A DNA stretch of 64,000 nt. Source: Cyanidioschyzon merolae. Taxonomy: Eukaryota. The translations under genes were made by a program, and so were the position numbers. Position 1 is the first letter of the stretch. Every line of letters begins with the position of its first letter. Location: the NCBI GenBank assembly GCA_000091205.1, contig AP006501.2, one strand, 5' to 3'. Below the pieces are notes generated by a model. The model was not told the origin of the DNA and did no database searches. It saw only the letters and a program-made list of their open reading frames with translations. This document shows positions 1,063-54,480 of this stretch, in pieces.

Positions 1063-2501
1063 ATTCATACTGCCTGCTGTTTTCGCGAATGGAGGCAGTA
1101 TCGTGGACAAGTTGCCTCGTGTTGGCGCGTTCTGTGGCGGAGCGGACCACGCCACCACCAGGAAATCCATGATGACGCCCTATGGAGACCAACGGAGACG
1201 CCGCATCAACCCTCATGCGCAGACAAGGACGAAAACGATCCGAAGCGAGCGATAGGATGCACTGGTGGCGTCTGCTTGCGCGCCGTCTCCACCGGCCGCA
1301 TCACGTCGCCCGCAACAGAACACCGGTTGCAAGCATGGTTGCGCTTACAAGTCACCAGCGCGGGCCGCGCTGTGCTGTATGCCGCCTGTAGCCTGAGGCC
1401 GCTGCAGCCTCCGGTGCGCAGAACCCGAGCGATTCTCGAGAACTGCCACGTTACGCGGACACCCGTTTCTACTTTTCAGCAGAAGGACACACTCCCGACA
1501 GAACATAGCCTGGTACTTGGCGCCAGGGGCGTTGCAGCGACAGCAGCGCGGCGTCTCGCCTCGCCGTTGTGGTTGCTCGACAAGCAGAAGCGCACAGTCT
1601 GCGCAGATGCGAGCAGGTTCGAATAGCGCGTGCACTGCTTCACAAGTCACGCACTGACCGTCGCAGCGCGCACATAACAAGCCGACTTCACTGCCCTGTG
1701 TGCGGCCGCACTGAGCTCCGGTATGTTTCAGGGACATTTGCGGTGCGCTCGAGCGTCTCGCTTTCGCCTCCTGAGAACGCGACGGCCAACTGCACGCACA
1801 GTTCACAGGTTCAGACTCGTAGTTGTCGTGGGTTTCGTCAACTAAGCACCGCTGCGCCTTTAGACGGTGCCAGCGCGTCTCCAAAGCCGCCTAACGGGGA
1901 ACTCAGGAACCAGTTCGGTGTCAGACTTGGAGCAAAACTTTCAACCAGTGCGCTCGTTCCACACGTTGCAGTACCGTCAAATCAAAAGGTTGAGCACTGG
2001 CTTATCGGGTACGCTGAAAGACTCGGCTAGTCCAAGCGGACGCGTGTCTGCCAACGTAACACTGACTAGAACGCGGCCCTGTTTTGGTACTTGCTCCGGG
2101 GCTCGGTGGACCGCGATGGACCACGCGACGAGCGCGCTCTGGCAGGCAGCTGCACAGCGATGAAGTCAGAGGCCTGGGAACGCGCACAGCGCCGCGGAGT
2201 TAATCCGACGCGCGTCCGGAACGCCACAGCGCACCGTTTATGCCGCAAGTTGCAGAGCGCCTGCGAGCAGGCCGGCCCAATGAGCAGCTCGCCACAAGTC
2301 CATGAACTGAACGGGCGTTCAGCAGGCTCGGAACGTGCACAGCCTCCTGCTGTTGCGGATTCGACGTTAGCAAACGAGTTAGAAATCGACCAAAAGCCGC
2401 TTTACAACGAATGCACCGCATTTTCTGCATTTAGGCCCCGTTTCATGCCGTATATGTATGTCAACGCCAGTGCTTAGTCGCCGCACCGTCTCGGCAGCGT
2501 T

Positions 2502-3761
2502 TCAAGGTGATTCGGGTTCGGGTTCGGATTCGGGTTCCAGTTGCGCAACGATAACGCTCGCATCGTCACCCTTCCCAGGACAAACAAGTCTCGGCATGCG
2601 TTCCGATATGTAAGGATCGCAATTGGTGCAGCTGGAGAAGTTATGTGCGAGTTGTGCCAGTTGATAGCTTAACAACACTGGATCTATGTGGGTAAAGGTG
2701 CCCAAGCAGGTCCGATTCGCCACCGCCAGATTCGAATCATACGCAGAAGAGACCGGACACACCAGCGCGAGAATCTGGCTCTCACTGATATTATCGAAAA
2801 GGCCATCCGTCCCAAATATAACCGTATCGTACGCTCGTAGTCGGAACACGTCGAGGTAAATGGGCACCACATCACCCGTACACGTCTCGATCGTGATGCT
2901 GGTGCGTTGGGTTTCCGGATTCCCCTCGATGCCGTTGAGGCTCGAGAACACAATTGTTTGATCACGAATCACGAGGAACCCGATATTGCCTGTACGCACG
3001 GCATAGAGCAGATTCCCATTGTTTGCGAGACATGCCGCCAGCACCGACACCGAACGCACTGCTTCGGGCGGCCGCATATGCGTCACGGCATCACGGAGAC
3101 AGCTGAGTAGTTCGAAGCGTGGTTGCCAGTTTCGTCCTCGAGCGGTGTCTTGCTCCGATTCAGAAAAAAGCACCTGTTCAATGAACCCGTCTAAGATGTT
3201 GCGCACATGGTACTGCGCCGTGTACATATGCGCCAGTTCTACATCGCGCGTGTCCTTAATCGGTGCGAATGCCGCGCGAACAACACCACGCTCAGTGGCG
3301 TAGAGAACGTGACCGCAGTCCGCAAGGCCCACCGCGCCCTTCCCCTCGCAAACGAAGACCGTGTCCGTCGACCCCGAGAGAAGCAACGCCTCACCAGGAA
3401 ACGTTGTACCTTGTTCCGCACTAGGACGATCGCCGATGATCTGGTACGTTCCACACCGAAAGACGCACCGCTGCTCTGAGACTGCAAGCGGACGCTGCTC
3501 GTTGTGCGGCTCGCTCCGCAACGACAGTTTCGCCACGCCGCACCGCCGCTGTGCCTCGTGTGAGTGCTGACCGCGCAAACACCTCAGTGCAGACGCCGAC
3601 GAGAAGAGGCTTCCGCGATAAACACACGTGTTAATAACGAACTGCAACGGATTATCAGGTTCAACTGGCTGCCGCAACGAGCTTGGGGTTTCTTTGAACA
3701 GAGTGCCGCCTCGTTGCCTGCCGAGCGACCGCATGGCGAAAACGTACCGCCTGCTTGGCAT
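2502..3761 (-). CDS. PPM/PP2C-like protein phosphatase, divergent
   Basis: 419-aa ORF with an ATG start. PP2C-like blocks: LANNGNLLYAVRTGNIGFLVIRD (cf. VANVGDSRAVL), VIFGTDGLFDNISESQI (cf. LILASDGLWDV), C-terminal GKGDDASVIVAQL (cf. SKDNITVIVV). The N-terminal ~120 aa are not obviously PP2C. Confidence 0.4.
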   Translation of the reverse strand: MPSRRYVFAMRSLGRQRGGTLFKETPSSLRQPVEPDNPLQFVINTCVYRGSLFSSASALRCLRGQHSHEAQRRCGVAKLSLRSEPHNEQRPLAVSEQRCVFRCGTYQIIGDRPSAEQGTTFPGEALLLSGSTDTVFVCEGKGAVGLADCGHVLYATERGVVRAAFAPIKDTRDVELAHMYTAQYHVRNILDGFIEQVLFSESEQDTARGRNWQPRFELLSCLRDAVTHMRPPEAVRSVSVLAACLANNGNLLYAVRTGNIGFLVIRDQTIVFSSLNGIEGNPETQRTSITIETCTGDVVPIYLDVFRLRAYDTVIFGTDGLFDNISESQILALVCPVSSAYDSNLAVANRTCLGTFTHIDPVLLSYQLAQLAHNFSSCTNCDPYISERMPRLVCPGKGDDASVIVAQLEPESEPEPESP

Positions 3762-3872
3762 AGACAGTGACCGGAAAGCTGCACCGAAAACGCCGTTGTG
3801 CTCTTCTCGAGCCTGTGTTCCGAGACCTGCACGCCGCCTCCAACAAACGCCGTTCTAAAGAAAAGGCTGCTG

Positions 3873-6145
3873 TCACCAGTGGTACAGCAGTGGCGCGCCA
3901 CGCGCCCCCCAGACAAAACGTCTCGAGCAGATGCGCAGATGCCCTTCAGATTTCTTGAACCGGCCACCCAATACTGCTTCCAACTTCTTTTCATATAGTT
4001 CAACTTTGAGAGGTTGTCCAAGAAAATTTTCTCTTGACAGCTGTGGAGGTCGTTTCTCCAGCAGCGCACATTTCCTTATATTGATTGCGGCGTTAAAGTC
4101 ACGATTCACAAACTCCATATGTTTCTTGCCATTGGTAGTTGGACTCACTAGTGCAAGCAATCCACGAACTTTCGCCCTCCTTTTCATTTGCTCTTCCGTC
4201 AGCGGTCCGTACTTTTTTACATCCTCAGGGCTTCGCTGATATTTTTCCATCTCGACCGTCTGAAGTGTGCACCCCAGTTCATGGTGTGTATAGGACGTTC
4301 GGAACTCATCTGCAGGTATCGTAGCGAAGCTCCGTGCGCACTTCTTGTACGTTCTTGTTGTTGGAGCTGGCGTAGTTCCTTTTTTGGGTCCTCCATCGCC
4401 CTGCTCCGTATGCTACTACGAGCCTTTGACTTTCATCCTCCTTCAAGGCGCTCAACTGACTGAAAAAGTTGGCGACTGCAAGCCGCTTCCCACAATACAG
4501 GTTCATAAGCAGACGGGCCCATCGAGGCTTTGTATACTCCTCCCACAGCGCATCCCAATGAGCAACGCGAACTTCCATAAACTCCCGAAAAGCGTTAGAG
4601 TCCGCTCCTCGGGTCGTCACCTCGCTCAAAGCCTCCAGGTGCTCTTTCATTCCTGAATTCCATGTAATGATTTTCTTCCTTGCATTCATTACGCCGGATC
4701 CTCGGTAGTATCTCGCTCTCGAGAACCTCAACAGACGCATGTCTTTCTGACGTGAGTTGCCGTCAGTACCATCTTCCGCGCGCTTGGGAGCAGCGATGGT
4801 TACGATATTCGTAACCCCAGGGTCCGCGCCAACGACAAAGTCGTTATCCTGCACTTTCTGTGTGGCACAATCTGCCTCCTTCTCATCTTCATGCTTCGTC
4901 ACGGACACTATCGAAGACGGAACTGGACGATCCGCCTTCAAGCGCCGATAGTGAACACACATGGCTACTCCATCGGTTTCGATCACCCCTGTGAATACCT
5001 TTTGTTTGCTCACTTTCAGACTTGTGAAATCGAAGATATTCTTCCAGTACGTGTCCCGGTTTTCACCGGTACTCTCCTTCCTGCTGACATTAAACTCGGG
5101 GCTGAACTCCTTCATGATGCCGTAAAGGATTCTGGAATCGATAGTCACAAAATGTGACTCGATGTTGGACAACGGAACGACGTTGAAGCGCTTACCCAGA
5201 AGCGCAGCCTTTCGTCTCCCCCACTCTTCATTTTTTCCTCACTCAGCTTCATCTCTGCCTTGCGTTCGAGCTCACGGTCCAGAAACACAAAGTAACGCAG
5301 GACGTGGCGGTAGTATCTTTCGTTATCTTTTTTCAACTCTGATATGTTTGCTGCTCGGTTCGCCAACCCCAGTACCGCACGATGCTCTTGTATAGCCGCT
5401 CGGATGACGGAATCCTCATTCATGCTCCTGAGTGATTTCTTCTCGTCGATGAATTCAATCTCATCTTCATGCTTGCGATCGTTCGTGTTGCCATTGATAA
5501 TCGCCCATATCCCCTGGCGAATGAGACCGGGTAGAGTGCAAAGATGGAGCGTATCATGAAGTTCTTGAGGTTCATTGTTAAATGGTTCTTTAGACTGGTG
5601 AGGTAGTTCATCGCTCCGTAGGTGTAAATATTCGAATCCCCCCCTGTATCGAGTACCGTCGAAGCGGAACTCGGCGTAAATTTTGTGGAGGGCATGAACT
5701 CGCTCATTTCACCTAGACGTTTCACCGGTGCCAAGCATCCGGTGATGAAAAACGGTTTTGTTGAGAAAATCTTCCAGAATATGGACTGTTTTGATGTCCG
5801 TAACGTCATGATACCATTTTCTTAGGAAATCCACCATTCCTTGAGAAGCGTCACGAACACCGCTGGAGTTCGGCTCGACACGGTTCCAGATTGCCTCTCG
5901 AACGTTTTCCCTGTACGGATCCTTGGTATGTTGAAGAAGACAGGCTTTCACCGCCATCTCGTCGTACCGTCATCTTTTGCGTAGCCTTTGACGTAGGGCC
6001 TCCCGCTTTTACTTCTTCTTCTTATCCTGTTCCTTTGCACTTGGCACTGTTCTTCATTTTTTCGGGCTGCCGGCGACATTGGCGCCCAGGATCCTCCACT
6101 TCCCCTCCCGTAACTTTCCTTTTTCAATATAAAAAACCGAAACAA
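3873..6145 (-). pseudogene. Fanzor-type TnpB-like RNA-guided endonuclease gene with at least 4 frameshifts
   Basis: The reading frame switches between consecutive ORF segments. One example lies at 4250-4306: a third frame restores ...FRTSYTHHELGCTLQTVEMEKYQR. Catalytic-looking residues are retained. Confidence 0.65.
3876..6116 (-). mobile_element. Fanzor/TnpB-like element, copy A (~2.24 kb, degraded)
   Basis: Colinear ORF segments on the minus strand (5948-6145, 5709-5957, 5420-5809, 5145-5423, 4306-5172, 3873-4250) jointly encode a ~700-aa protein. It carries [12 protein letters not shown] (RuvC-I-like) and EFVNRDFNAAINIRKCA (the classical TnpB/Fanzor RuvC-III motif). Homology to copy B begins at ~6116 and ends just after the stop codon. 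Confidence 0.7.
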
Positions 6146-7199
6146 CTTTGGATGGTACAGCTATTACGCATAAAAAAGCACTTGAATACATTAGTGTGAA
6201 GGTTGAAACACGATTGAGGACAAACAATGGGCTTTTCTACGACTTGAAATCGTTAAAATTTGTACGATAGAGCTACATGCTTCATTTTTCCGATGGAAAA
6301 ACACTTACATTGACAATGGATCCCAGATTGTGCTATAAATGGGTATCGGATTTGGCGAAAGCATCCATCATGCTGCATTCTAACTCCAGATTCCATTACG
6401 TATACTTCCTTTCAGATGTACTACTCGTCTCGTGCTTCCTGTCATTCGCCGGGTGCATGCGTTGATGCACCCGCCTTAGCGTCTAATCCGCTGATGCCGA
6501 TGCATAACAGAGACAGGACAGCGTTGCCGTACTACTGAGGGCGTCGGATCGAGGAATGCTCCACCTGACACAGAGTCGGAGTATAGGATCATTCTGGGAG
6601 CCAGCAAGCTCCGCAGACAGACACACTGCCTGCGATAGCGTGAAGCTATATACCAGGACTCCACCGCGACCAGATCGACGCCCAGATGCAGTTTAACTGC
6701 CGCTAGTACCAGAATAAACAGTGCTGCAGACGAATTGCTCAGATTTCTATGCAGCACCCGCCACTGGGTGGCGAGCACGAAGCACGTGCCTGGGGTACTC
6801 GTCTGGCTCGCGGGTTTTTCCGTCGAGAAATTCAACTTTCGACAAAACGGGAACCGTGTTTCCTTTTTATCGTTTATCGTGCAGGGAAGATAAATTGGTA
6901 TATCGTTGCTAGTTAATGGTTAGTCTCTGTTCTTTGCTCTGTATGCTGCGGTCGGTTAGCGCGCCGGGGAGATCAGGTCGTACGAGACAAGACGCACGTG
7001 TCGCCGTTGAAAGGAAACGCGAAATTGTGAAAATCCGTTTTCTTATTGTTCTACCGTACAAGTTGTATTTGCGTTAAAGTCGTAACAAAGTAAAGTTGTT
7101 TCATGCAATTGTGTTTCAAACCTCAAGTAAGTGTATACAAATGATGTTTGGCAATTCAGATCAGAAGCGTCGAAAGAACCTTCTTCTTCTTCAAAAATA

Positions 7200-9416
7200 A
7201 AAAAGGTTATGGAAAAGAAACTGGAGGATCCTGGACATCTGGTGTCGTCGACTGCCGGAGACTGACGAAAAACATGGCGGAGCTAAAAGGAACATGAGAA
7301 GACGATGGAGCAAAAGAGGAAGGCCCGAGGTCAGAAGCTGAACGAACCACGACAGTACGACAAGATGGTGGTGAAAACCTGTCTTCTCGCACATATCAAG
7401 GATCCGTCCCGGCGAAGGCTGCGAGAGGCCATCAGAAACCGTATCGAGTCATACTCCATGAGTGTTATGATGGCTTCTGCAGGTATAATGCATTTGGTGA
7501 AGGAGATGCGCGACGACGTAACGGGCATCAAAACAGTCGAGGTTCTGGAAGAATTTTTCGGCAAAACCTTTATTCGTCACCTGATGCTTGGTACAGGGGA
7601 AACGTCGAGGAGAAATGAGCGGGTGCATGCCCTCTGCCAAAAATACTCCTTCTACAGCTCCAACGGTACTCGAGACAGGGGTGACTCGCATATTTACACC
7701 GTCGGGTTATGAAGCACCTCACGAACCTGAAGAACTATTTGACCATGAGCCTGGAACGTTTCATGATACGCGCCGTCTGTACGCGCTACCCGGGCCCCTC
7801 TCGCGAAGGGATATGGACCATCATCGACGGCATCACAAACGATAGTAAGAATGAGCAGGAGATCGAATTTGTTCACGGGAAGACATCACGCAGGAGAGCA
7901 AATGAGGATTCTGGAATCCGTGCAGCTATTAAAGAGCATCGTGTGGTCTTGGGGCTGGCGAGTCCAGCAGAAAAGATATCCGAGTTGAAAAAAGATTCGG
8001 AAAGATACGATCGCCTCATCTTGCGCTATACCATATTCCTGAACCGACAACTGAAATGCAAGACCGATATGGAGCAGGGTGTTGAAGCAAATGCAGTGTC
8101 GGAGAAACGGAAAGCTGCGCTTCTGGAGAAGCGCGTCAACGTCGTTCCGTTGTGCAACATCAAGTCACATTTTGTGAGTATCGACTCCGAAATCCCTTAC
8201 GGCATCATTACGGAGATCTGTCCAGTGTTCGATGTAAGCAACAAGCAGTTCACCGATGAAAACCAGGAGACGTACTGGAAGAAGAATATCTTCGATTCCA
8301 AACGTCTCAGAACGAGCAAGAAAAAGGAATTCACTGGGATGATCGAAAGTGATGCGATAGCCATGCGTGTACATTATCGGCGCTTGAAGGCGGATCGTCC
8401 AGTTCTGTCTTCGTTGCCGTCGCTGGCAAAGCGTGAAGAAAACAAAGAGGCTAGCCCAACGACGCAGGAGGTGCATGAGAACCACTTTGTCGTTGGCGCG
8501 GGCCCTGGGAACACGAATATCAGGACCATCACAACACGCAATTGCGGGGATGATGGCATCGACGACAACCTACGTCAAAAAACACATGCGTGTTTTAAAG
8601 CTTTCAAGAACGAGATATTACCGAGAATTCGGTGTGATGAATGCAAAGAAGAAAAGTGGGGCGTGGAACGCAGGATTGAAAGAGCACCTGGAAGCGATCA
8701 GCCAGGTGACGGGCCGGGGAGCGGACTTTCACGCTTTTCGGGAGTTTATGGAAGTTCGTGTTGCTCATTGCGAGGCGCTGTAGGAGGAGTATACAAAGCC
8801 CCGGTGGGCTCGGTTGCGTATGAATCTACACGGTGGGAGCCAGCGTGCGTTCGCGAGTTTTTTCAATGAATTGAACGTCTTGAAGGAGAGCGACAGTCAG
8901 AGGCTCGTACTAGCGTATGGAGCAGGGCGATGGAAGACCCGAAAAGGGTGTACACGAGCTCCAACTACAAGAACGCACAAGGAGTGTGCAAGGCGTTTCG
9001 TTACGATACCTGTAGATGAGTTACGAACGTCGTATACACACCATGAACTGGGTTGTACGCATCATAGAGTGGAGATGGAAAAGTACCAGTGAAGCCCTGA
9101 GGATGTAAAAAAGTACGGAGCGTTGACGGAGGAACAAATGGAAAGCAGGGCGAAAGCTCGTGGACTACTCGCATTACTGTGTACAAACAAAGATGGCAAG
9201 AAACGTATGGAGTTTGTGAATCGTGACTTTAACGCCGCTATCAATATAAGGAGATGTGCGGTGGTGGAAAGAAGACCTCCAGAGTGGACACGATAGAACT
9301 TTGTTGCGCAATCATTCAAACTGGAACTGTATGAGAAAAAGTTGGAGGCAGTAGTAGGTGGCCTGTCCAAAAAGGCTGGGAGGCGTCTGCACGTCAGCCG
9401 AAGACGATTTATCTAG
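7200..9416 (+). mobile_element. Fanzor/TnpB-like element, copy B (~2.2 kb, degraded), inverted relative to copy A
   Basis: ORF segments 7305-7712, 7709-8869, 8433-8783, 8814-9092 and a 9095-9416 frame are colinear with copy A at ~55-65% aa identity. RuvC-I reads [10 protein letters not shown] (D to G). The C-terminus reads MEFVNRDFNAAINIRRCAVV with in-frame stops (MEKYQ*, ...EWTR*). Confidence 0.7.
7305..9416 (+). pseudogene. Fanzor-type TnpB-like endonuclease gene, inactivated (frameshifts, stops, RuvC-I D to G)
   Basis: As above; the aligned sequence contains stop codons. Confidence 0.65.
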
Positions 9417-10217
9417 CGCGGGTTTCTCGCCACTACTGTACACGGCCGCCGGCGACGTTCGTCTTTTAGGGCGTTCCTTGTGTCGGCGATACCACGGACC
9501 AGCAGCAGGCGACCGCGCCCATCGCCCGAAAGAAGCAACCGGTTTCGCGAGCTGGACGCAGTACGGCGCTCTGCCCTGTGCGCCTTTTGTGGCTTTCAGG
9601 TACGCGGTCTACCGCTCCGGACACTGCTCCAACAGTCTGGCCGGTCCTTGATTACGACAAGTAGCGCTGAAAGCAAGCCTTTCGTGCACGGAAACTGAAC
9701 GCGAGTCGGAGCACTGTTCGTCACACAAGTGCTGGGTTATCCGTTCTCGTCCCTATCATAGACGTGTGTGTGTGGGCGTGCGGGTGGCTCCGCTTTGCTC
9801 CTCGAGATTTTCCCTTCCGTGAAACGGGGACGTGTCTGCAGGATTATGTGACGTACGCGAGTTTGATCGGAAGACAGTTACTGTCAGGAAAGCGCTGGCT
9901 GGAGCTGCCCGCAAGACGACTGGTCGCAGGAGGTGTTTTCGTGGTAAGCGTCACCCTCGCCGGCATCACGCTTTACCACGGGTGGTATTCCAACACACAA
10001 AGCATTCAAGACGATCATGTCCGGAATGGCTCTGTGGAGACGTGCGACTGCGCCCCGCTATGGAGATGCATGCAAGCGTTCGGTAGCGAGCACGCACCAG
10101 AGTGCGCAGCGGAACGAAGCAGCCTCCTGCGCTGCATGGCGCACAGCAAGCCTTCTACATCATAAACATGAAGGGGCACCATTGGCGGCCTTTATGTGAC
10201 TGTGCAAAGAAGTGACA

Positions 10218-10853: not shown

Positions 10854-11431
10854 TGATGGCGGTTCACGCCTCCAACAGGCACCCTTTTGGAGTCGACCTC
10901 AGTGCAGCAGCGTAGCGGTACCTGGGGGGGAGAATTCGCTGCACCCCACACAGGATTCCGTTGCGCGAGCTGTGCACGCACTTTGGCGAGCATTCGCGCT
11001 ACCTCGATGGCCAGCGCGCGCAACCGAAAGCGCAGCAGCGCCTCTGGCACGAATGGCGCCACCAAACTGCCTTCCGCAGCTTGCATGGTGGATGGTGTCG
11101 GATTGTCCAGGTTATGCGCTTATGCTAATGTGCGCGACGCGCATCGGCATCAAGGGTACCTTCTGGGCGCAAGGTCCAGCGAATCGGATACGCATACGGG
11201 GCCAGTGCGCTTTCTGCGCCTACCCACTGTGGTGGGTGTCAAGCACAAACCCGCATTGCCAACCGACAACAGCGCATTCCATGCATGATCACGAAGGAGA
11301 GCGGCGGCTCCCAGCATTCATCCTAACAGCCAAGTTTCTCCAGCGTGTCGTTCAGCAAAGGCAAGCCTGCATCCGCAGACTGTCCGAGCACATACCGACG
11401 ACGAGACCCGATTCTACGTCGGGTGAAGCAC

Positions 11432-11750
11432 GCCTCAAGCCGACGCCCTCTCGGGTATAGAAAAGCTGTTCTAGCTCTATGAACTATCTGCTCTAGCATT
11501 TAAGGTCCAAAGGCGGATACGGAACGGCAGGCACTAGGCACACCCGATGGGACGTATGAAACGGCCGGAATATCCGAGAAGAGGTATCGGTAATGTAACT
11601 TGGAGGTTCGGGGGTTTGATGGACACCTTACCGCCCACTGAAAAAAACCACAAAAAAAGTAAGAAACAAATGCGCTTAATCGGAGAACGCTGGCCGAAGT
11701 AAACGTGTTGTCAGTGAAAAAAATCCGAACGTGCTGCTGTGGTGGCATAT
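11432..11750 (+). repeat. dispersed ~320-bp repeat R1, copy 1
   Basis: Colinear with 18490-18808 at ~80% identity, from agccgacgccct...ctagctctatgaactatctgct through an A-rich tract to gctgctgtggtgg. Followed by an AT-rich 50-bp patch. Confidence 0.7.
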
Positions 11751-16019: not shown

Positions 16020-16215
16020 CCAGGTGCACCTGTAGTCTGGGAGGCTGCCCACAAAGTTGGATCGCGTCAGTTCTGCGGATCTGGCCTTCAGCACCGCACA
16101 TCGTCTGATATTGATGGTGGCGTTGAGGTCTCGGTTCTTGATCTCCTTGCGTGCAGTGCCACTGGTTGAACGCACGATTGCAAGAAGTTTTAGAACTCGT
16201 GCTCGCTGTGCCACT
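16020..16215 (-). mobile_element. solitary internal fragment of a Fanzor/TnpB-like gene (RuvC-III region)
   Basis: The minus-strand ORF encodes ...RARVLKLLAIVRSTSGTARKEIKNRDLNATINIRRCAVLKARSAELTRSNFVGSLP. This matches RAKVRGLLALVSPTTNGKKHMEFVNRDFNAAINIRKCALLEKRPPQLSRENFLGQPL from copy A. It is more diverged than the other copies. Confidence 0.55.
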
Positions 16216-17122: not shown

Positions 17123-18489
17123 CTTGTCGCTCTGTAGACCAGGACTCAGAAAAGGATCAAGGCCCCTGGGCGTTTAGATATGCGTCTGCCCAGCATCCAA
17201 GAACAGACTTGATCGGTGAGCAACAAATGCTCGGCGATACTGCGGAGATATTCTGTGCTCCTGTCGCTTGGTGCGCACCGCTCTAGGCCGCCTGAGCGTT
17301 GCAGCGTCCAGATTGTCTGGGGCGCGCGTCAGGCACTGCTGGAAGACCCGTACCAATGCCCTGCGAGCTGGTAGGCTGACACCATCCCTGCTACAAGAAT
17401 GATGATATCAAGCATGATGCGTACCCAGCGTTTCTCTCGCTCAGACGCTAGCATGAAATATGGCTGAAACGTAGAACAAGCATGCGAATATCTCCGCGAG
17501 ATTTGCGTAAAGGAAAACGCTATGCGCTCTGACGAACCAGAATGGCACTCGAGCTGAGCATTCCCTGACGCCGTGACGGACGGTGCTCGGTGGACCAGTT
17601 CGGTACGCGATCAATGGGCAGGCAAGTCACCCATCTGGTGGTGATGTCCTTGCGTTGCGGGGTGGTCGCAGCTGCCCAAAGTGCAAAATCCACTCTGACC
17701 TGGTTTGGACTTGCTCGGAAAGGCGCTCCCACAGAGCACATGCTGTTTTGTTCTCGAGTTGCAGCAAACACCGGCGTGCTCCTGTAATTTGAGGGCAAAC
17801 GCTCCGTTGTCAGCAGTTGCCGCGCTAGCGTCACGCGGTTGCGAACGAAGGCTGGTTTCCAGTCAGGCCGATCCCGAGGCTGCCTCGCAAACTTGGTACC
17901 ACGACGAGTACGCACGATCTGAACATTCAGGCGCATTCTGGATTTCGAACCTGTCCAAGTCGGTGGTGCAGAGCAGACTACACGGACGCGCACCCACAAT
18001 GAGGCCGGCTGCCGGGAGCTCAGTCTCTCTGCTTCCGCAAATGCAGCCGCGCTGCCCTCGCCTCCCGGAGCGCCTCGCTGCCCTGTGGAACAGAGCCATG
18101 TACGCACCGGCGACGTTTCTTACGCCAAAACTTTCCGAATTGTTGACGACTATGCACAAAGTGCGCCACTGCACCCGCCACGCGGCGGCGACACGGGCAC
18201 GTCAGCCACAAAGAACCCGTAGCGTGCTTCGCCTGGATGCCTGCCGCCGGTACCTGGATATCAAGGCCTCGTCGATACCGCGCCAAGCGTTAGCGGTGCG
18301 CTTAGCACGCATCGATTCGTTCAATGGATACAGATCCAGATCCGTAATACAGTACCCAGCATGGTACATATCCTAGCGCTGGAGGAGGCGCTCACGTCTC
18401 AAGTTGTCGCGCGCCCGCTCATCATATTCAGGCAAAGCGGCCTGTAACGGCGCTGTGATCGCAAAATGCGCATACAGGAATCGCTACCC

Positions 18490-18808
18490 TCGAGCCGACG
18501 CCCTTTGTGCGGTACAGCAACGCAGCGCTAGCTCTATGAACTATCTGCTCCAGCGGTTCAGGCGCAAAGGCGGATACGGAACAGCAGGCACTAGGCACAC
18601 ACGAGAGGACGTGAGAAACGACCAGAATATCTGAGAAGAAGTATAGGTAATGTAACTCGGAGGTAGGGAATTCGGTGGATACTTCACCGCGCACTGAAAA
18701 AAAAACAGAAAAAGAAAAGAAAGGAAAAAGCGCGTAATCAGAGAACGCTGGCCTAAGTAAACGTTCTGTCAATGAAGAAAAATCGAAATCGCTGCTTGCC
18801 GGTGGGCG
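18490..18808 (+). repeat. dispersed ~320-bp repeat R1, copy 2
   Basis: See copy 1 (11432-11750). Confidence 0.7.
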
Positions 18809-19041
18809 CTCAGGCAGCGCTTCGTGGTACGCGCTGCAATCACAGCGGCGGCGTTACAGGCACGCGGCGCGCATGCAGCGCACGTCACGCTCGGGACAGC
18901 GGTTACGGTTGCGGGAATTTGAACCCGGCGCATGGATCGCGTTGTTGTTGAGCCTGCAGCCGTTGCAGCTGCGGGCGAGCGTGCGTATCGTTGCGCGTTG
19001 TATTTGCTCTCCGGCTCTTTCAAGCAGTCTCAACAGATAAC

Positions 19042-28742: not shown

Positions 28743-29346
28743 ATACATGTTTTAATCAATTTAAATGAGGCTCGTGACCTGAAACCCACACGACATGCTG
28801 CACTCCTTGTCTGAACAGACGCGCGACGCCGAGCTATGCGACATGAAGCTGTCGCTGCGAAGCGTCGACACAGCGACTGTATACGCGGTGCTCGCGTGCA
28901 ACAGAGGCACCTTTCTGGCGTCCGCGAAAGGACCACGCTTTCAGCAGCGATGCTGTTTTCGTGGTGGTGTCTCGGCGGATGCACCCGGATGCCGGTGGAT
29001 GCGCGCCAGCTAACGGTCACTGGGCAAACGGCTGTTATTCCTTAACCGACACGTTTACGTTCCGCAAGCGCGAACCCTGGATTTCTCATACAAACTCATT
29101 CTTGGTCAATCTGGTAAGCAGACAGCATTGTTAGACAAGCACACGCAGCCGCGCGCACCGCGGCAGTCGACAGACGCAATACATGGGCGTCAGCGCTCCC
29201 AGCCGGCGAACAACAACTGTGCTGGACGCTCCATGAAGCAGCGCAAACCGGCAGCTGTGGCGCGATTTACCAGCGCTTGCTCGCAAAGCGGCCCGCACAC
29301 GCTGCACCGGCTTGTCTGCTCGCAAAAGAACCGAGAACACCAGCTC

Positions 29347-29598
29347 CTATACCCGCGTAGCGGCTGGTGCACAGACCGGAACCGCTCTGCTGGGACACCA
29401 CGCCTCTACGTCATAGATGACCCGGATGCGAAGCGAGCACGACGGGCACTTGGCAATCTGTTCCCCACGCCGCATTTCTGCGACTGTGAGAACGAATAGG
29501 TCCCCACACGGGCAATTGTACGTGTACCTCTGGGCATCTTCTTCATAGTTCATATCTTCGATCTCGACTTCGTCGTATACATTAGTCTCTGTTTCCAT
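29347..29598 (-). CDS. DPH3: diphthamide biosynthesis protein 3 (DPH3/KTI11, CSL zinc finger)
   Basis: METETNVYDEVEIEDMNYEEDAQRYTYNCPCGDLFVLTVAEMRRGEQIAKCPSCSLRIRVIYD matches DPH3 YDEVEIEDM...FTYPCPCGDRF...CPSCSL.IKVIYD. Start set at the internal ATG 29598; the track ORF extends to 29748 into transposon-derived sequence. Confidence 0.8.
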   Translation of the reverse strand: METETNVYDEVEIEDMNYEEDAQRYTYNCPCGDLFVLTVAEMRRGEQIAKCPSCSLRIRVIYDVEAWCPSRAVPVCAPAATRV

Positions 29599-29749
29599 TC
29601 CCTGGTCGTTATCCACGAAGCGTTCGCTCGAATGACGCACCCGGTGAATGCGAAGACAACCCTGAAAACAAACCCCTTTCAAAAGAAAAACGTTGCTGCC
29701 AACGGTGTACGGTAGTGGCGACCAGCGCCTAAGCCTTGACGTCTCCAAC

Positions 29750-30200
29750 TGACGTGTAGACGCCTCGCCGTCTTTCTGGACCGGCCGCCTACAACTGGTT
29801 TCAATTGTTTCTCATATAGTTCCACTTTGAGAGGGTGTCCCACAAAGTTCACTCTTGTCCACTTTGGAGGCTTTTTCTCCATCATCGCACATCTCCCTAC
29901 ATTGATTGCTGCGTGAGAGTCTCGGTTCGCAAATTCCATACGTTTCTTGCCATCACTGGTAGTACTTACTAGTGCAAGCAAACCACGCACTTTCGCTCTC
30001 CTTTCCATTTGATCTTCCGTCAGCGCTCCGTACTTTTTTATATCCTCAGGGCTCCGCTGGCACTTTTCCATCTCCACTCTCTAAAGAGTACACCCCAGTT
30101 CATGGTGTGTATAGGACGTTCGGAAAGCATCTACAGGTATCGTGACGAAACGCCGTGCACACTCCTTGTGCGTTCTTGTCGTTGGAGCTGGTGTACACTC
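29750..30200 (-). mobile_element. 5'-truncated Fanzor/TnpB-like 3' fragment (zinc-finger region + RuvC-III + 3' end)
   Basis: Minus-strand frames give ECTPAPTTRTHKECARRFVTIPVDAFRTSYTHHELGCTL then MEMEKCQRSPEDIKKYGALTEDQMERRAKVRGLLALVSTTSDGKKRMEFANRDSHAAINV...RRLHVSWRR. These are colinear with the copy A/B C-termini. Confidence 0.7.
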
Positions 30201-30552
30201 CAGAGGGTGGAGATGGAGAAATGCCAGCGGAGCCCTGGGGATATAAAAAAGTACGGAGCGCTGACGGAAGGTCAAATGGAAAGGAGGGCGAAATTTCGTG
30301 GATTGCTTGCATTAGTAAGTACAACCAGTGATAGCAAGAAACGTATGGAGTTTGTGAACCGAGAACTTAACGCGGCAATCAAGGTAGGGAGTTGTGCGGT
30401 GATGGAGAAAAGACCTCCAGCGTTGACCAGAGAGGATTGTATGGGGCAACCTCTCAAAGTGGAACTATTTGAGAAAAAAATGAAACCAGTAGTAGCTTGG
30501 CGGCCCAGAGAGGCTGGGAGCCGTCTGCACCTCAGCTGGAGACGATTTGTCC
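30185..30552 (+). mobile_element. 5'-truncated Fanzor/TnpB-like 3' fragment, inverted partner of 29750-30200
   Basis: The plus strand encodes VEMEKCQRSPGDIKKYGALTEGQMERRAKFRGLLALVSTTSDSKKRMEFVNRELNAAIKV...SRLHLSWRRF, ~80% aa identity to its minus-strand partner. The junction lies at ~30184, where homology switches strand. Confidence 0.7.
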
Positions 30553-30642
30553 AAGGCGCGTTCGCCGCCACGACTACACACCGCTGGCGGCAGCGGTTCT
30601 CTTTTGAAAGGCGTTATCGGACTAGCCTCTGATTCATCAAGG

Positions 30643-31440
30643 ATGGTGCTGTTTGAAATTGAATATCGAGTGCGGCTTCCTCGGGAGGAGATGTGGAGCC
30701 TGCGAGAAGACCCTGAGTTTTTGCGTTGGCAGTATGAGCACTCCTCCGATATGAGCAACCTGGAAATTGTGGAGAAAAACGTCGACGCAGCCGACCCCGA
30801 CCGCATAACCGTGACGTGGCGGATAACACCTAGCGTGCCGCTGCCGCAGTTTGTACTTGCGTACGTTGGCGAAGGTGCTGGCATCTACATCGAAGACGTT
30901 CACGAATACCGCCTGTCGAAGCCGTACTACATCAACTTCCGCAGCCATCCGAATATGTTTCAGGAGTACACCGAGACCAGGGGTGAGTGCGAGTTCGTTG
31001 ATGAACCTGCTGACTCCGCGGATGCCCAGGCTGGAACACGCGTCTGCATCCGAGGAGAGGTGATTGTGAACGTCCCGCTTGTGGGGCCTTACGTCGAAAA
31101 CTTCGTGGTGAATAACTTGCGGAACTTTTACACGGGGTTTCCAGACCTGGTGCATTCATATGTAGCGGCCAAAAATGGACGTTTGAACCCCGACGACAGT
31201 CAGATGTGGTTGAACCCGGAGTCATCGGTGCATGTACAACCGAATACCGCAGAGGCAAACGAGGCGAGTGCCATCCACGGGGCTGGCGCGGATGTGGCCC
31301 CTGCTCTGGCGGCTCTGCAGCGCTCGCTACCGCCATCGGTCGACGCGTCACTGGCATCCGTGCCAGTGGCTTCTGGCGCCCCTGAAGCGATCCCAGAGTC
31401 CATACAAGCGCCAAGAAGATCATGGTGGCCATGGCAATGA
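30643..31440 (+). CDS. hypothetical protein
   Basis: Track ORF starts at TTG 30547 inside the transposon fragment; first ATG is 30643 (MVLFEIEYRVRLPREEMWSL...). No confident family assignment. Confidence 0.35.
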   Translation: MVLFEIEYRVRLPREEMWSLREDPEFLRWQYEHSSDMSNLEIVEKNVDAADPDRITVTWRITPSVPLPQFVLAYVGEGAGIYIEDVHEYRLSKPYYINFRSHPNMFQEYTETRGECEFVDEPADSADAQAGTRVCIRGEVIVNVPLVGPYVENFVVNNLRNFYTGFPDLVHSYVAAKNGRLNPDDSQMWLNPESSVHVQPNTAEANEASAIHGAGADVAPALAALQRSLPPSVDASLASVPVASGAPEAIPESIQAPRRSWWPWQ

Positions 31441-42464: not shown

Positions 42465-42790
42465 GCGTATTTTCGACTGATCATCGTTCACGCTCTGTAG
42501 CGAGGCCAGATACTGCGTACCAGAGTGCACCCACCAGCTGTTCGAGCGGAACATCGCTTGCAGCTGGGGGCCGGGCGTATTTTCGACTGATCATCGTTCA
42601 CGCTCTGTAGCGAGGCCAGATACTGCGTACCAGAGTGCATCCACCAGCTGTTCGAGCGGAACATCGCTTGCAGCTGGGGGCCGGGCGTATTTTCGACTGA
42701 TCATCGTTCACGCTCTGTAGCGAGGCCAGATACTGCGTACCAGAGTGCATCCATCAGCTGTTCGAGCGGAATATCGCTTGCAGTTGGCTT
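42465..42790. repeat. 110-bp minisatellite, ~2.9 tandem units
   Basis: Units at 42465-42574, 42575-42684 and 42685-~42790 are near-identical (gcgtattttcgactgatcatcgttcacgctctgtagcgagg...). No interspersed unique spacers. Confidence 0.9.
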
Positions 42791-43451
42791 CGGTTGATAC
42801 ACTCTGCGAATCCGCAAAACGAATGGGAATCATGGCATGGAACTGGAGCGCCATCACCAGGCAAGAGTACTCGACGCATCGTTCCGGATCACGGGAATCG
42901 GCGTGTGTTTCACGGTAACGCAGCGCTAGATTGATGATGAGCTACCCAGTGAGCTTGCCGTGAATCGCGAATACGAACGTGAATCTCCAGGGACGATTTA
43001 CGAGACCGATGGACGGTCTCACAGATTCAATCGTTTTCGCCAATAAGATACTCCAGTAATTTTCTGGACTTTTTCTCCGAAGCAGCGCTCGAGCGGCAGC
43101 ACGAAAATGACCAGCTTCACAGCTGCCATCCGCGAGGCCTATCCTTCACTCTGCTTCACACACGAACGCGCATGTGCATCGTATTGATCACACATCCGCA
43201 TATTAGCGCGAAAGTCATTCCCCAGTTCATGGTAAACAACCTGTTGCCGATATCATCCGCATGGTATCCGCTGCTGTTGCTGGCGGTGTCGCAACCGCCG
43301 CCGCCGCCGTTGCGCCCGGCGTGTCTGCCGACGACAATGCGACACCGCCAGCGCGGCGCTTGCCTTAAAAGGGCGCATCCCCCGAGGCCTCAGTAGCACG
43401 CTCCTGTGTTTCAGTGCTTTCCGTGTCAAGAAGCGTTTCTGCATCGGCTCC

Positions 43452-54309: not shown

Positions 54310-54480
54310 ATCCGCTGTACACCACGAGCCTGAGAGGTTGTGCGATAAAGTTAGATCACGTCAGCTCTGCGGCTCTCGTCTCCAGCACAGCATACTGCCT
54401 GATACTGGTAACAGCGTTGAATTCTCGGTTCACGAGCTCCTTGGGTTTATTGCCTCTGGTTGAACACATCCGTGCATGGA
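54310..54480 (-). mobile_element. solitary diverged fragment of a Fanzor/TnpB-like gene (RuvC-III region)
   Basis: Minus strand encodes ...RGNKPKELVNREFNAVTSIRQYAVLETRAAELT*SNFIAQPLRLVV, colinear with GKKHMEFVNRDFNAAINIRKCALLEKRPPQLSRENFLGQPLKVEL. The listed plus-strand ORF 54306-54512 is its antisense frame. Confidence 0.5.

Follow-up and report, generated by a model that had tools for sequence, protein, structure and literature searches.

A decayed head-to-head pair of CMe-1A (Fanzor1) 3' ends occupying the intergenic region between DPH3 and CMS026C in Cyanidioschyzon merolae

CMe-1A was described as a Fanzor1 family of ~150 copies, ~80% identical to the consensus and ~3 kb long, without terminal inverted repeats or detectable target-site duplications and with a single Fanzor1 open reading frame (ORF) that is reportedly intact in some copies (Bao and Jurka, 2013; PMC3627910). 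In a window of 64,000 nucleotides from chromosome 19 of Cyanidioschyzon merolae 10D (AP006501.2; the window is the whole stretch of DNA analysed here), we observed that two 5'-truncated CMe-1A 3' parts, pointing outward, form an imperfect palindrome of 956 bp (29660–30615) between the divergent genes DPH3 and CMS026C. We read it, with a probability of about 0.6, as an old, non-coding head-to-head CMe-1A dimer, which was inserted after the split from Cyanidiococcus, replaced the native spacer and serves by default as a bidirectional promoter region.

Among the described Fanzor1 elements, CRe-1, CRe-2 and CRe-3 of Chlamydomonas, which are Helitron2-like (Bao and Jurka, 2013), resemble CMe-1A in their frequent 5' truncation, near-universally intact 3' end, 3' hairpin and lack of a transposase of their own. 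Nevertheless, the CRe families have 3' ends in common with identified Helitrons, are inserted after TTTT and show variable target-site duplications; neither a TTTT target nor duplications were found in CMe-1A, nor, short of a search of a whole genome, was a Helitron partner, and inverted dimers are unreported for CRe. With respect to the features that define Helitron and IS91 elements, CMe-1A presents the hairpin ~12–22 nt from the 3' end and the 3'-biased truncation, while a CTRR end, a consistent target motif and target-site duplications were not seen. The passages of PMC3627910 concerned with CMe-1A do not mention head-to-head dimers, 5' truncation, a 3' hairpin or 3' ends close to host start codons, and the literature searched contained neither a description of Fanzor dimers joined head-to-head nor one of the transcription start sites of CMS026C.

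The "ghost" Spu-1 loci of Spizellomyces punctatus are likewise ORF-less Fanzor1 derivatives that keep the right-end region of the omega RNA (Saito et al., 2023, Nature 620:660; PMC10432273). Those loci, 134 in number, have both inverted repeats, are strongly conserved and expressed, and are functional with SpuFz1 (PMC10432273). The C. merolae palindrome, in contrast, has two right ends and no left end, was found at one locus and is decayed.

Inverted or partial-tandem dimers are also formed by Penelope-like elements and LINEs, through twin priming or template switching in target-primed reverse transcription, and, together with copy-back defective genomes, these share with the palindrome the 5' truncation, the head-to-head arrangement with outward 3' ends and the microhomology at the junctions. 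Those elements, however, encode a reverse transcriptase or depend on one, and none was linked to CMe-1A here, nor was a poly-A or microsatellite tail or a target-site duplication. A terminal-inverted-repeat or foldback element would not describe the structure either, as solo CMe-1A copies have no inverted repeats, flanking duplications are absent and the junction was found at one locus. In Ty1/Ty3, Tf1 and the TRE elements of Dictyostelium, insertions cluster directly upstream of genes according to a rule of orientation or distance, as those of CMe-1A do; all of these are retrotransposons, their integrases are tethered to transcription factors, and the 5' untranslated region (UTR) is not replaced by them, whereas the CMe-1A end lies 13–70 nt from a protein-coding ATG.

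The palindrome and the locus that it occupies

An inverted-repeat search placed the main arms of the palindrome at 29725–30094 and 30190–30559 (370 nt, 83% complementary), with an outer extension at 29671–29728 and 30558–30615. Blastn and alignments against a full-length copy (L001:4600–7500, the reference to which all element positions refer) identified each arm as a 5'-truncated CMe-1A 3' part, homologous to the 3' ends of copies A and B, ~80%-identical repeats within the window (Table 1). The pair of inverted, outward-pointing Fanzor 3' ends proposed in the first-pass annotation of the window was thus recovered, although the extent given there (29750–30552) was too small. As single-stranded DNA, 29658–30615 folds into a single long hairpin of -364.6 kcal/mol, against -131.7 +/- 6 for shuffled sequences (z = -38). 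The same palindrome is found in a separate metagenome assembly of a Yellowstone strain (L053), which is 99.2% identical over 6.5 kb, and, because this independent assembly carries the same structure, the possibility that the palindrome is an assembly artefact was ruled out.

The left arm retains ~94–100 nt more of the element than the right arm (reference start 2300 versus 2394), somewhat less than the ~120 bp first estimated. Its tail, GTTTGTTTTCAGGG, is also present in copies L029, L051 and L012; in the right arm, the short sequence found behind the hairpin of other copies is either absent or diverged. The arms join in an overlap of 11–14 nt, of which 30185–30195 can be aligned to the sense and the antisense reference alike, and not at ~30184 as annotated. 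Inside this junction, at 30191–30198, there is a palindromic octamer, GTGTACAC. At reference ~2394 this octamer constitutes the family consensus, and in copy B it occurs at ~2300 as well. A search for the junction elsewhere, with the 207-aa ORF that spans it, matched the same locus only (P0060), with a sensitivity limited by the need for an ORF called across the junction; within this limit, the palindromic unit is confined to one locus.

The gap between DPH3 and CMS026C measures 1044 nt, of which 956 nt (92%) are element-derived, so that the pair does fill nearly all of the divergent intergenic region, in line with the annotation. Between the outer end of the left arm and the DPH3 ATG there are 61 nt, and between the end of the right arm and the CMS026C ATG there are 27 nt; divergent gaps of the ordinary kind range from 817 to 2108 nt in the window. 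For comparison, we took the ProRS-DPH3-DUF2505 loci that are syntenic in Cyanidiococcus and in a third lineage, where the DPH3-DUF2505 spacers are 922 bp and ~615 bp long, respectively, and detected no trace of CMe-1A in these spacers. Since the element is lacking from both, the insertion is, by this comparison of sequences, specific to the C. merolae lineage and would have occurred after its split from Cyanidiococcus. The native spacer, 600–900 bp in the relatives, is gone at the C. merolae locus, where nearly all of it was replaced by the element.

Table 1. Positions in the window of the palindrome, its parts, the flanking genes and the neighbouring CMe-1A copies.
Feature	Position	Strand	Remarks
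Left arm	29660–30198	-	5'-truncated CMe-1A 3' part, reference ~2300 to 3' terminus; blastn against full-length copy L001 and alignments
Right arm	30190–30615	+	5'-truncated CMe-1A 3' part, reference ~2394 to terminal hairpin
Junction	30185–30198		overlap of sense and antisense alignments to the reference
RuvC-II remnant VDAFRTS	30114–30134	-	left arm only; from ORF translation; family motif VDEFRTS
RuvC-III remnant RDSHAAINV	29898–29924	-	left arm; family consensus RDFNAAINI
RuvC-III remnant RELNAAIKV	30360–30386	+	right arm; catalytic D replaced by E
3'-terminal hairpin remnant	29671–29694	-	left arm; AACGTTTTTC-TTTT-GAAAGGGGTT, 1 mismatch
3'-terminal hairpin remnant	30592–30615	+	right arm; AGCGGTTCTC-TTTT-GAAAGGCGTT, 2 mismatches
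TATAAAAAAG (codons for DIKKY)	30033–30042	-	left arm, intact; read from the sequence; only a lead for an outward core promoter
TATAAAAAAG	30242–30251	+	right arm, intact; read from the sequence; only a lead for an outward core promoter
DPH3/Kti11 (CSL zinc finger, 83 aa)	29347–29598	-	Pfam PF05207, E = 2e-23; syntenic orthologue also 83 aa
CMS026C (DUF2505)	30643–31440	+	100% identical to C. merolae 10D CMS026C; Pfam PF10698
CMe-1A copy A	3860–6284	-	pseudogene with frameshifts; 5' truncation of ~730 nt; directly adjoins copy B at the 5' terminus of the latter
CMe-1A copy B	6285–9467	+	full length (~3.2 kb), frameshifted pseudogene; 5' terminus common to L006, L030 and L032

Decay of the arms and the question of an omega RNA

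A 699-aa protein, stitched over the frameshifts of copy A, was used as query and retrieved 55 homologues. A profile of nine family members matched the solved structures of Fanzor1 proteins (9cf0, Parasitella Fz1, 3.2e-14; 8gkh, SpuFz1, 2.7e-13; 9cer, GtFz1, 5.8e-5), whereas a single-sequence search of the PDB gave no match, and Pfam returned no Fanzor or TnpB match for the ORF pieces of the window. These matches place the repeat family in Fanzor1, and we identify it as the CMe-1A of Bao and Jurka (2013; PMC3627910), in agreement with the Fanzor origin first assigned to the fragments. CMe-1A has a split RuvC domain with a D-E-D triad, whose D484, E656 and D725 are invariant in the alignment, and NRDFNAAINI is found in the consensus and in the intact homologues. 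Between RuvC-II and RuvC-III, where a zinc finger was looked for, the family has TSYTHHELGCTLQRVEMEKCQ...LLALVSTT and zero CxxC pairs; only a distant relative, P0054, keeps CWRC...C..C, with a PF07282 match of 7.9e-5 that is below the Pfam cutoff. Directly upstream of RuvC-I, the Fanzor ORF contains a 75-bp tandem repeat (25 aa, KHE(E/D)xKEA-like) that differs in copy number among copies (L001:6146–6450, reference 1547–1851; ~4824–4903 and ~8425–8501 in the window).

Neither arm can encode a nuclease: RuvC-I is present in neither, RuvC-II is present in the left arm only, with the catalytic E replaced by A, and the catalytic D of RuvC-III is changed to E in the right arm. The RuvC-III motifs are indeed degenerate in both arms, as was noticed at first, but the additional stretch of the left arm, then taken as zinc-finger coding, contains instead the RuvC-II remnant, CMe-1A having no CxxC there (HHELGC). 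The left arm has no stop for 132 codons, yet it is non-functional.

The arms differ from each other at 17.0% of coding sites, and from copy A or B at 20.8–22.8%, so that they are, as suggested, closer to each other than to these copies. The differences between the arms are distributed roughly evenly over the codon positions (17/13/23), whereas the 19 derived substitutions that both arms have in common are codon-biased (7/2/10); this fits an origin of both arms from one active source subfamily, followed by neutral decay. In the arms, copies A and B and the family as a whole, differences from the consensus affect ~6–10% of sites at codon position 2 and ~18–22% at position 3, and much of the ~20% divergence therefore arose under coding selection in the source lineages and not by decay after insertion. 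Between the two strains, the palindrome has 9.4 substitutions/kb, against 3.8–4.6 in the adjoining genes (small numbers), and the non-coding tails of the arms are 20–25% diverged from the consensus.

The first-pass annotation offered three functional readings of the pair, one of them a non-autonomous derivative that bears an omega RNA, in which nucleotide conservation would exceed the expectation of the coding frame. Conservation was analysed in 52 distinct 3' ends, derived from 80 related loci on metagenome contigs. For the three codon positions, the RuvC-III region has variabilities of 0.08/0.08/0.18; in the C-terminal tail, as far as the stop codon, the values are 0.10/0.07/0.15. Third positions are thus about twice as variable as first and second positions, and the nucleotide conservation of the 3' part is therefore that expected from the coding frame; the ~70-nt non-coding end is the most variable CMe-1A 3' part (0.28). 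A conserved RNA structure, which had also been anticipated, was not observed: RNAalifold on 46 copies gave no consensus structure, and in the minimum-energy structure of the consensus the pairs vary on one side only, often disruptively, with zero compensatory changes, a test of low power because the copies are ~80% alike and have a star-like phylogeny.

We considered whether the palindrome could nevertheless be a functional ghost locus, in which each arm would express an omega-RNA scaffold, with the guide taken from the adjoining host DNA, for use in trans by intact CMe-1A Fanzor proteins. Such a role has a precedent in S. punctatus, where functional omega RNAs come from ORF-less ghost loci (PMC10432273), and a possible partner in the CMe-1A copies for which intact ORFs were reported (PMC3627910). 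In addition, the consensus of the 3' 177 nt folds better than shuffled sequences (z = -2.7), and a hairpin near the 3' terminus, the sole recurrent structural element, is kept by two subfamilies in different registers. In the arms, however, this hairpin carries one or two mismatches, the long-range helices are damaged in both, and the folding is no better than that of the antisense strands (z = -1.6 and -0.7). Rfam returned, for 29000–31200, only sub-threshold matches to miRNA precursors, which are due to the hairpin of the palindrome itself. Together with the coding-type conservation, the lack of observed covariation, the single locus without a left end, the diverged tails and a between-strain rate above that of the adjoining genes, this makes a ghost locus very improbable; as far as can be read from their sequence, the arms show no sign of keeping an omega RNA.

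The terminal hairpin is followed in the family by a tail of 12–22 nt. Microsatellite-like (TGG/TTG)n tails were considered at this position and rejected, since the tails are short subfamily-specific sequences. Within a 5' extension that some full-length copies have in common, direct copies of 68–90 nt of the 3'-terminal non-coding region were also noticed, ~760–870 nt upstream of the element (L024:1135–1227, L035:821–888, L036:752–819 and L057:796–863).

Head-to-head pairs in the family and possible origins of the palindrome

Copies of CMe-1A that are 5'-truncated and keep an intact 3' end are common, with reference starts at 2161, 2271, 2320 and 2394, and the truncation is 3'-biased in the family rather than random, as the first reading of the locus required. 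Head-to-head pairs with the 3' ends outward occur with at least five junction types (this palindrome, A|B, L004, L070 and the L033 type), while no tail-to-tail pair was seen and tandem adjacencies number ~6. Where the spacer is short, the junctions overlap by 11–27 nt, at three distinct break points. The L033-type dimer is palindromic, with its break in the internal 75-bp repeat region, and the same junction is found at no fewer than five loci with unrelated flanks (L033, L043/46, L060, L067 at 2299–4474, and L069). Copies A and B form a ~5.6-kb head-to-head dimer with its junction at 6284/6285; a unique spacer of 0.9–1.7 kb between them was considered and rejected, as what looked like a spacer belongs to copy B, being its 5' region, common to many copies. 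This A|B junction recurs at the unrelated locus L017 (1212–4485, 87% identical), where the B side is limited to its first 680 nt. Since the same junctions recur at unrelated loci, the dimers either undergo complete or partial re-copying or arise again and again at hotspots.

We propose that CMe-1A would be copied from its 3' end inward, and that the copying would often stop early, leaving a 5' truncation and an intact 3' end. The inner ends would be sealed on a short self-complementary microhomology, here GTGTACAC. The chemistry of insertion could be rolling-circle (Helitron-like, a mode proposed for the Fanzor1 families of Chlamydomonas), target-primed or break-repair copying.

In a single event, of the snap-back or twin-primed kind, a nascent copy stalled at ~2300 may have folded its GTGTACAC end back onto the octamer ~94 nt behind and been copied outward, the resulting hairpin being integrated whole and the pair being a passive by-product. 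This snap-back, which we regard as possible but tentative, would account for a junction that lies exactly on a palindromic octamer present at both break points; it predicts the 94-nt asymmetry of the arms and is in line with the overlapping junctions of two other dimer types. The arms, moreover, are sisters in a neighbour-joining tree of 3' ends, have the 19 derived substitutions mentioned above in common and differ from each other without codon bias. Nevertheless, the tree is star-like and the grouping is weak: only three of the shared substitutions are near-private, equally many link the right arm to L019 and to L067, the left arm is nearer to L012, at another locus (15.4%), than to the right arm, and the distance of 17% between the arms is at the 15th percentile of the pairwise distances of the family. 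Because the arms of other head-to-head dimers are more diverged than random pairs on average (98th percentile in L067, 94th in A-B), a simple snap-back is weakened, and it leaves unexplained why both 3' ends are placed at start codons.

The placement would be explained by two independent insertions directed to gene starts, whose inner ends were joined by microhomology or whose intervening DNA was deleted later. In this case, the association of 3' ends with ATGs is enough to predict that divergent genes have head-to-head pairs between them and that tail-to-tail pairs are lacking. The arms are as distant from each other as members of the same subfamily at different loci, and, in L067 as in A-B, the two arms clearly do not form a sister pair. 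Two insertions would, however, require that the zero-length spacer and the 11–14 nt overlap arose secondarily and that all native DNA between the copies was lost, and the arms do have derived substitutions in common; we consider this history conceivable, at somewhat less than even odds.

An internal deletion in a full-length head-to-head pair of the A-B kind, by recombination between two GTGTACAC sites with loss of the 5' portions, seems unlikely. Spacerless head-to-head pairs do exist, A|B at 20 kb from the palindrome and another one in L004, and the octamer could act as an 8-bp direct repeat in a microhomology-mediated deletion. However, intermediate forms have left no trace, the deletion would have to remove ~4.5 kb with both breaks in the C-terminal region, and the outcome is indistinguishable, on present data, from that of the other two origins.

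Other repeats were observed in the window. Two more CMe-1A fragments, at 16086–16187 (-) and 54331–54453 (-), cover the RuvC-III coding region at 71–74% identity to the reference and do not contain the 3' end of the element. A dispersed repeat (11157–11738 and 18488–18809, 76–84% identical) is homologous to the DNA just 5' of CMe-1A in L001, L004 and L059, and three 110-nt units, 92–99% identical, form a tandem repeat at 42465–42794.

Element ends in front of host start codons

In 49 distinct CMe-1A 3' flanks, we looked for ORFs of 200 aa or more that are co-oriented with the element and begin no further than 150 nt away. In 22–24 of the flanks (~45%), a co-oriented ATG is located at most 150 nt from the 3' end of the element, often 13–40 nt past the hairpin, whereas this is the case for 6.3% of random intergenic positions in the same loci (P about 4e-14). 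A long downstream ORF is present in 46 of the 49 flanks and is co-oriented in 31 of these 46. Examples of 3' ends next to an ATG are L038:~4479, L073:~478, L029:~1663 and L067:2285 and 4476, and the downstream ORFs are real genes, such as those for a kinesin (with the motor domain from residue 24), an NDUFS8-like protein, an M13 peptidase and a bicarbonate transporter. The dimer in L067, the only other complete one, is also located between divergent genes (753 and 984 aa), whose ATGs are ~31 and ~55 nt from its hairpins.

At the palindrome, the DNA that is not element-derived amounts to no more than 61 and 27 nt ahead of the two ATGs, so DPH3 and CMS026C must be transcribed either from inside the arms or from these tiny stubs. 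Judging from this position, the arms probably carry the promoters of both genes and most of their 5' UTRs. Of the three functional readings that had been offered, a bidirectional promoter is the best supported, by the position of the arms and the pattern across the family; the hairpin-forming remnant of an aberrant transposition is plausible but unproven, given the microhomology at the junction and the recurrence of dimers, and the omega-RNA derivative is unsupported.

An old head-to-head dimer that became a promoter region by default would arise if the 3' end of CMe-1A were typically placed directly upstream of a co-oriented host ATG: a divergent gene pair would then receive two outward 3' ends, one per gene, and the pair would work as a bidirectional promoter region without further change. 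Several points weigh against this interpretation. The promoter role is predicted from position, and start sites may lie inside the stubs of 27–61 nt if the genes have very short leaders. The 49 flanks come from mixed metagenome strains and not from the complete 10D genome. Target-site duplications were not found around five solo truncated copies or around the two complete dimers, the palindrome and L067, nor were they in PMC3627910. Finally, the arms of the palindrome are not clearly sisters, and those of the other dimers are more diverged than average.

A broader hypothesis can be put forward tentatively, on the sequence evidence above. The 3' end of CMe-1A, which corresponds to the part that codes for the omega RNA in other Fanzor1 elements, may carry an outward promoter and a 5' UTR, and the element may be integrated or retained, in an orientation-specific manner, in front of host ATGs. 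The ends of Fanzor elements would then drive the transcription of dozens of C. merolae genes, DPH3 and CMS026C among them, and the head-to-head dimers would be a re-copyable, two-sided form suited to divergent gene pairs.

Beyond its positional role, the palindrome is an inert relic. What is worth following up is the recurrence of head-to-head dimers and the association of 3' ends with ATGs, the latter not found described in the literature searched. With regard to the spread of Fanzor1 elements that lack a transposase, and for CMe-1A, which has been unclassified since 2013, the present data point to a 3'-anchored, truncation-prone copying, with sealing on microhomology, re-copying of inverted dimers and element ends close to ATGs beyond chance. 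If this holds genome-wide, it would represent a rule of targeting or retention that is unusual for DNA elements of very compact eukaryotic genomes, the ends of Fanzor elements would serve many host genes as promoter and 5' UTR, and a direct test would become available of whether the promoter of the omega RNA was reused for host genes.

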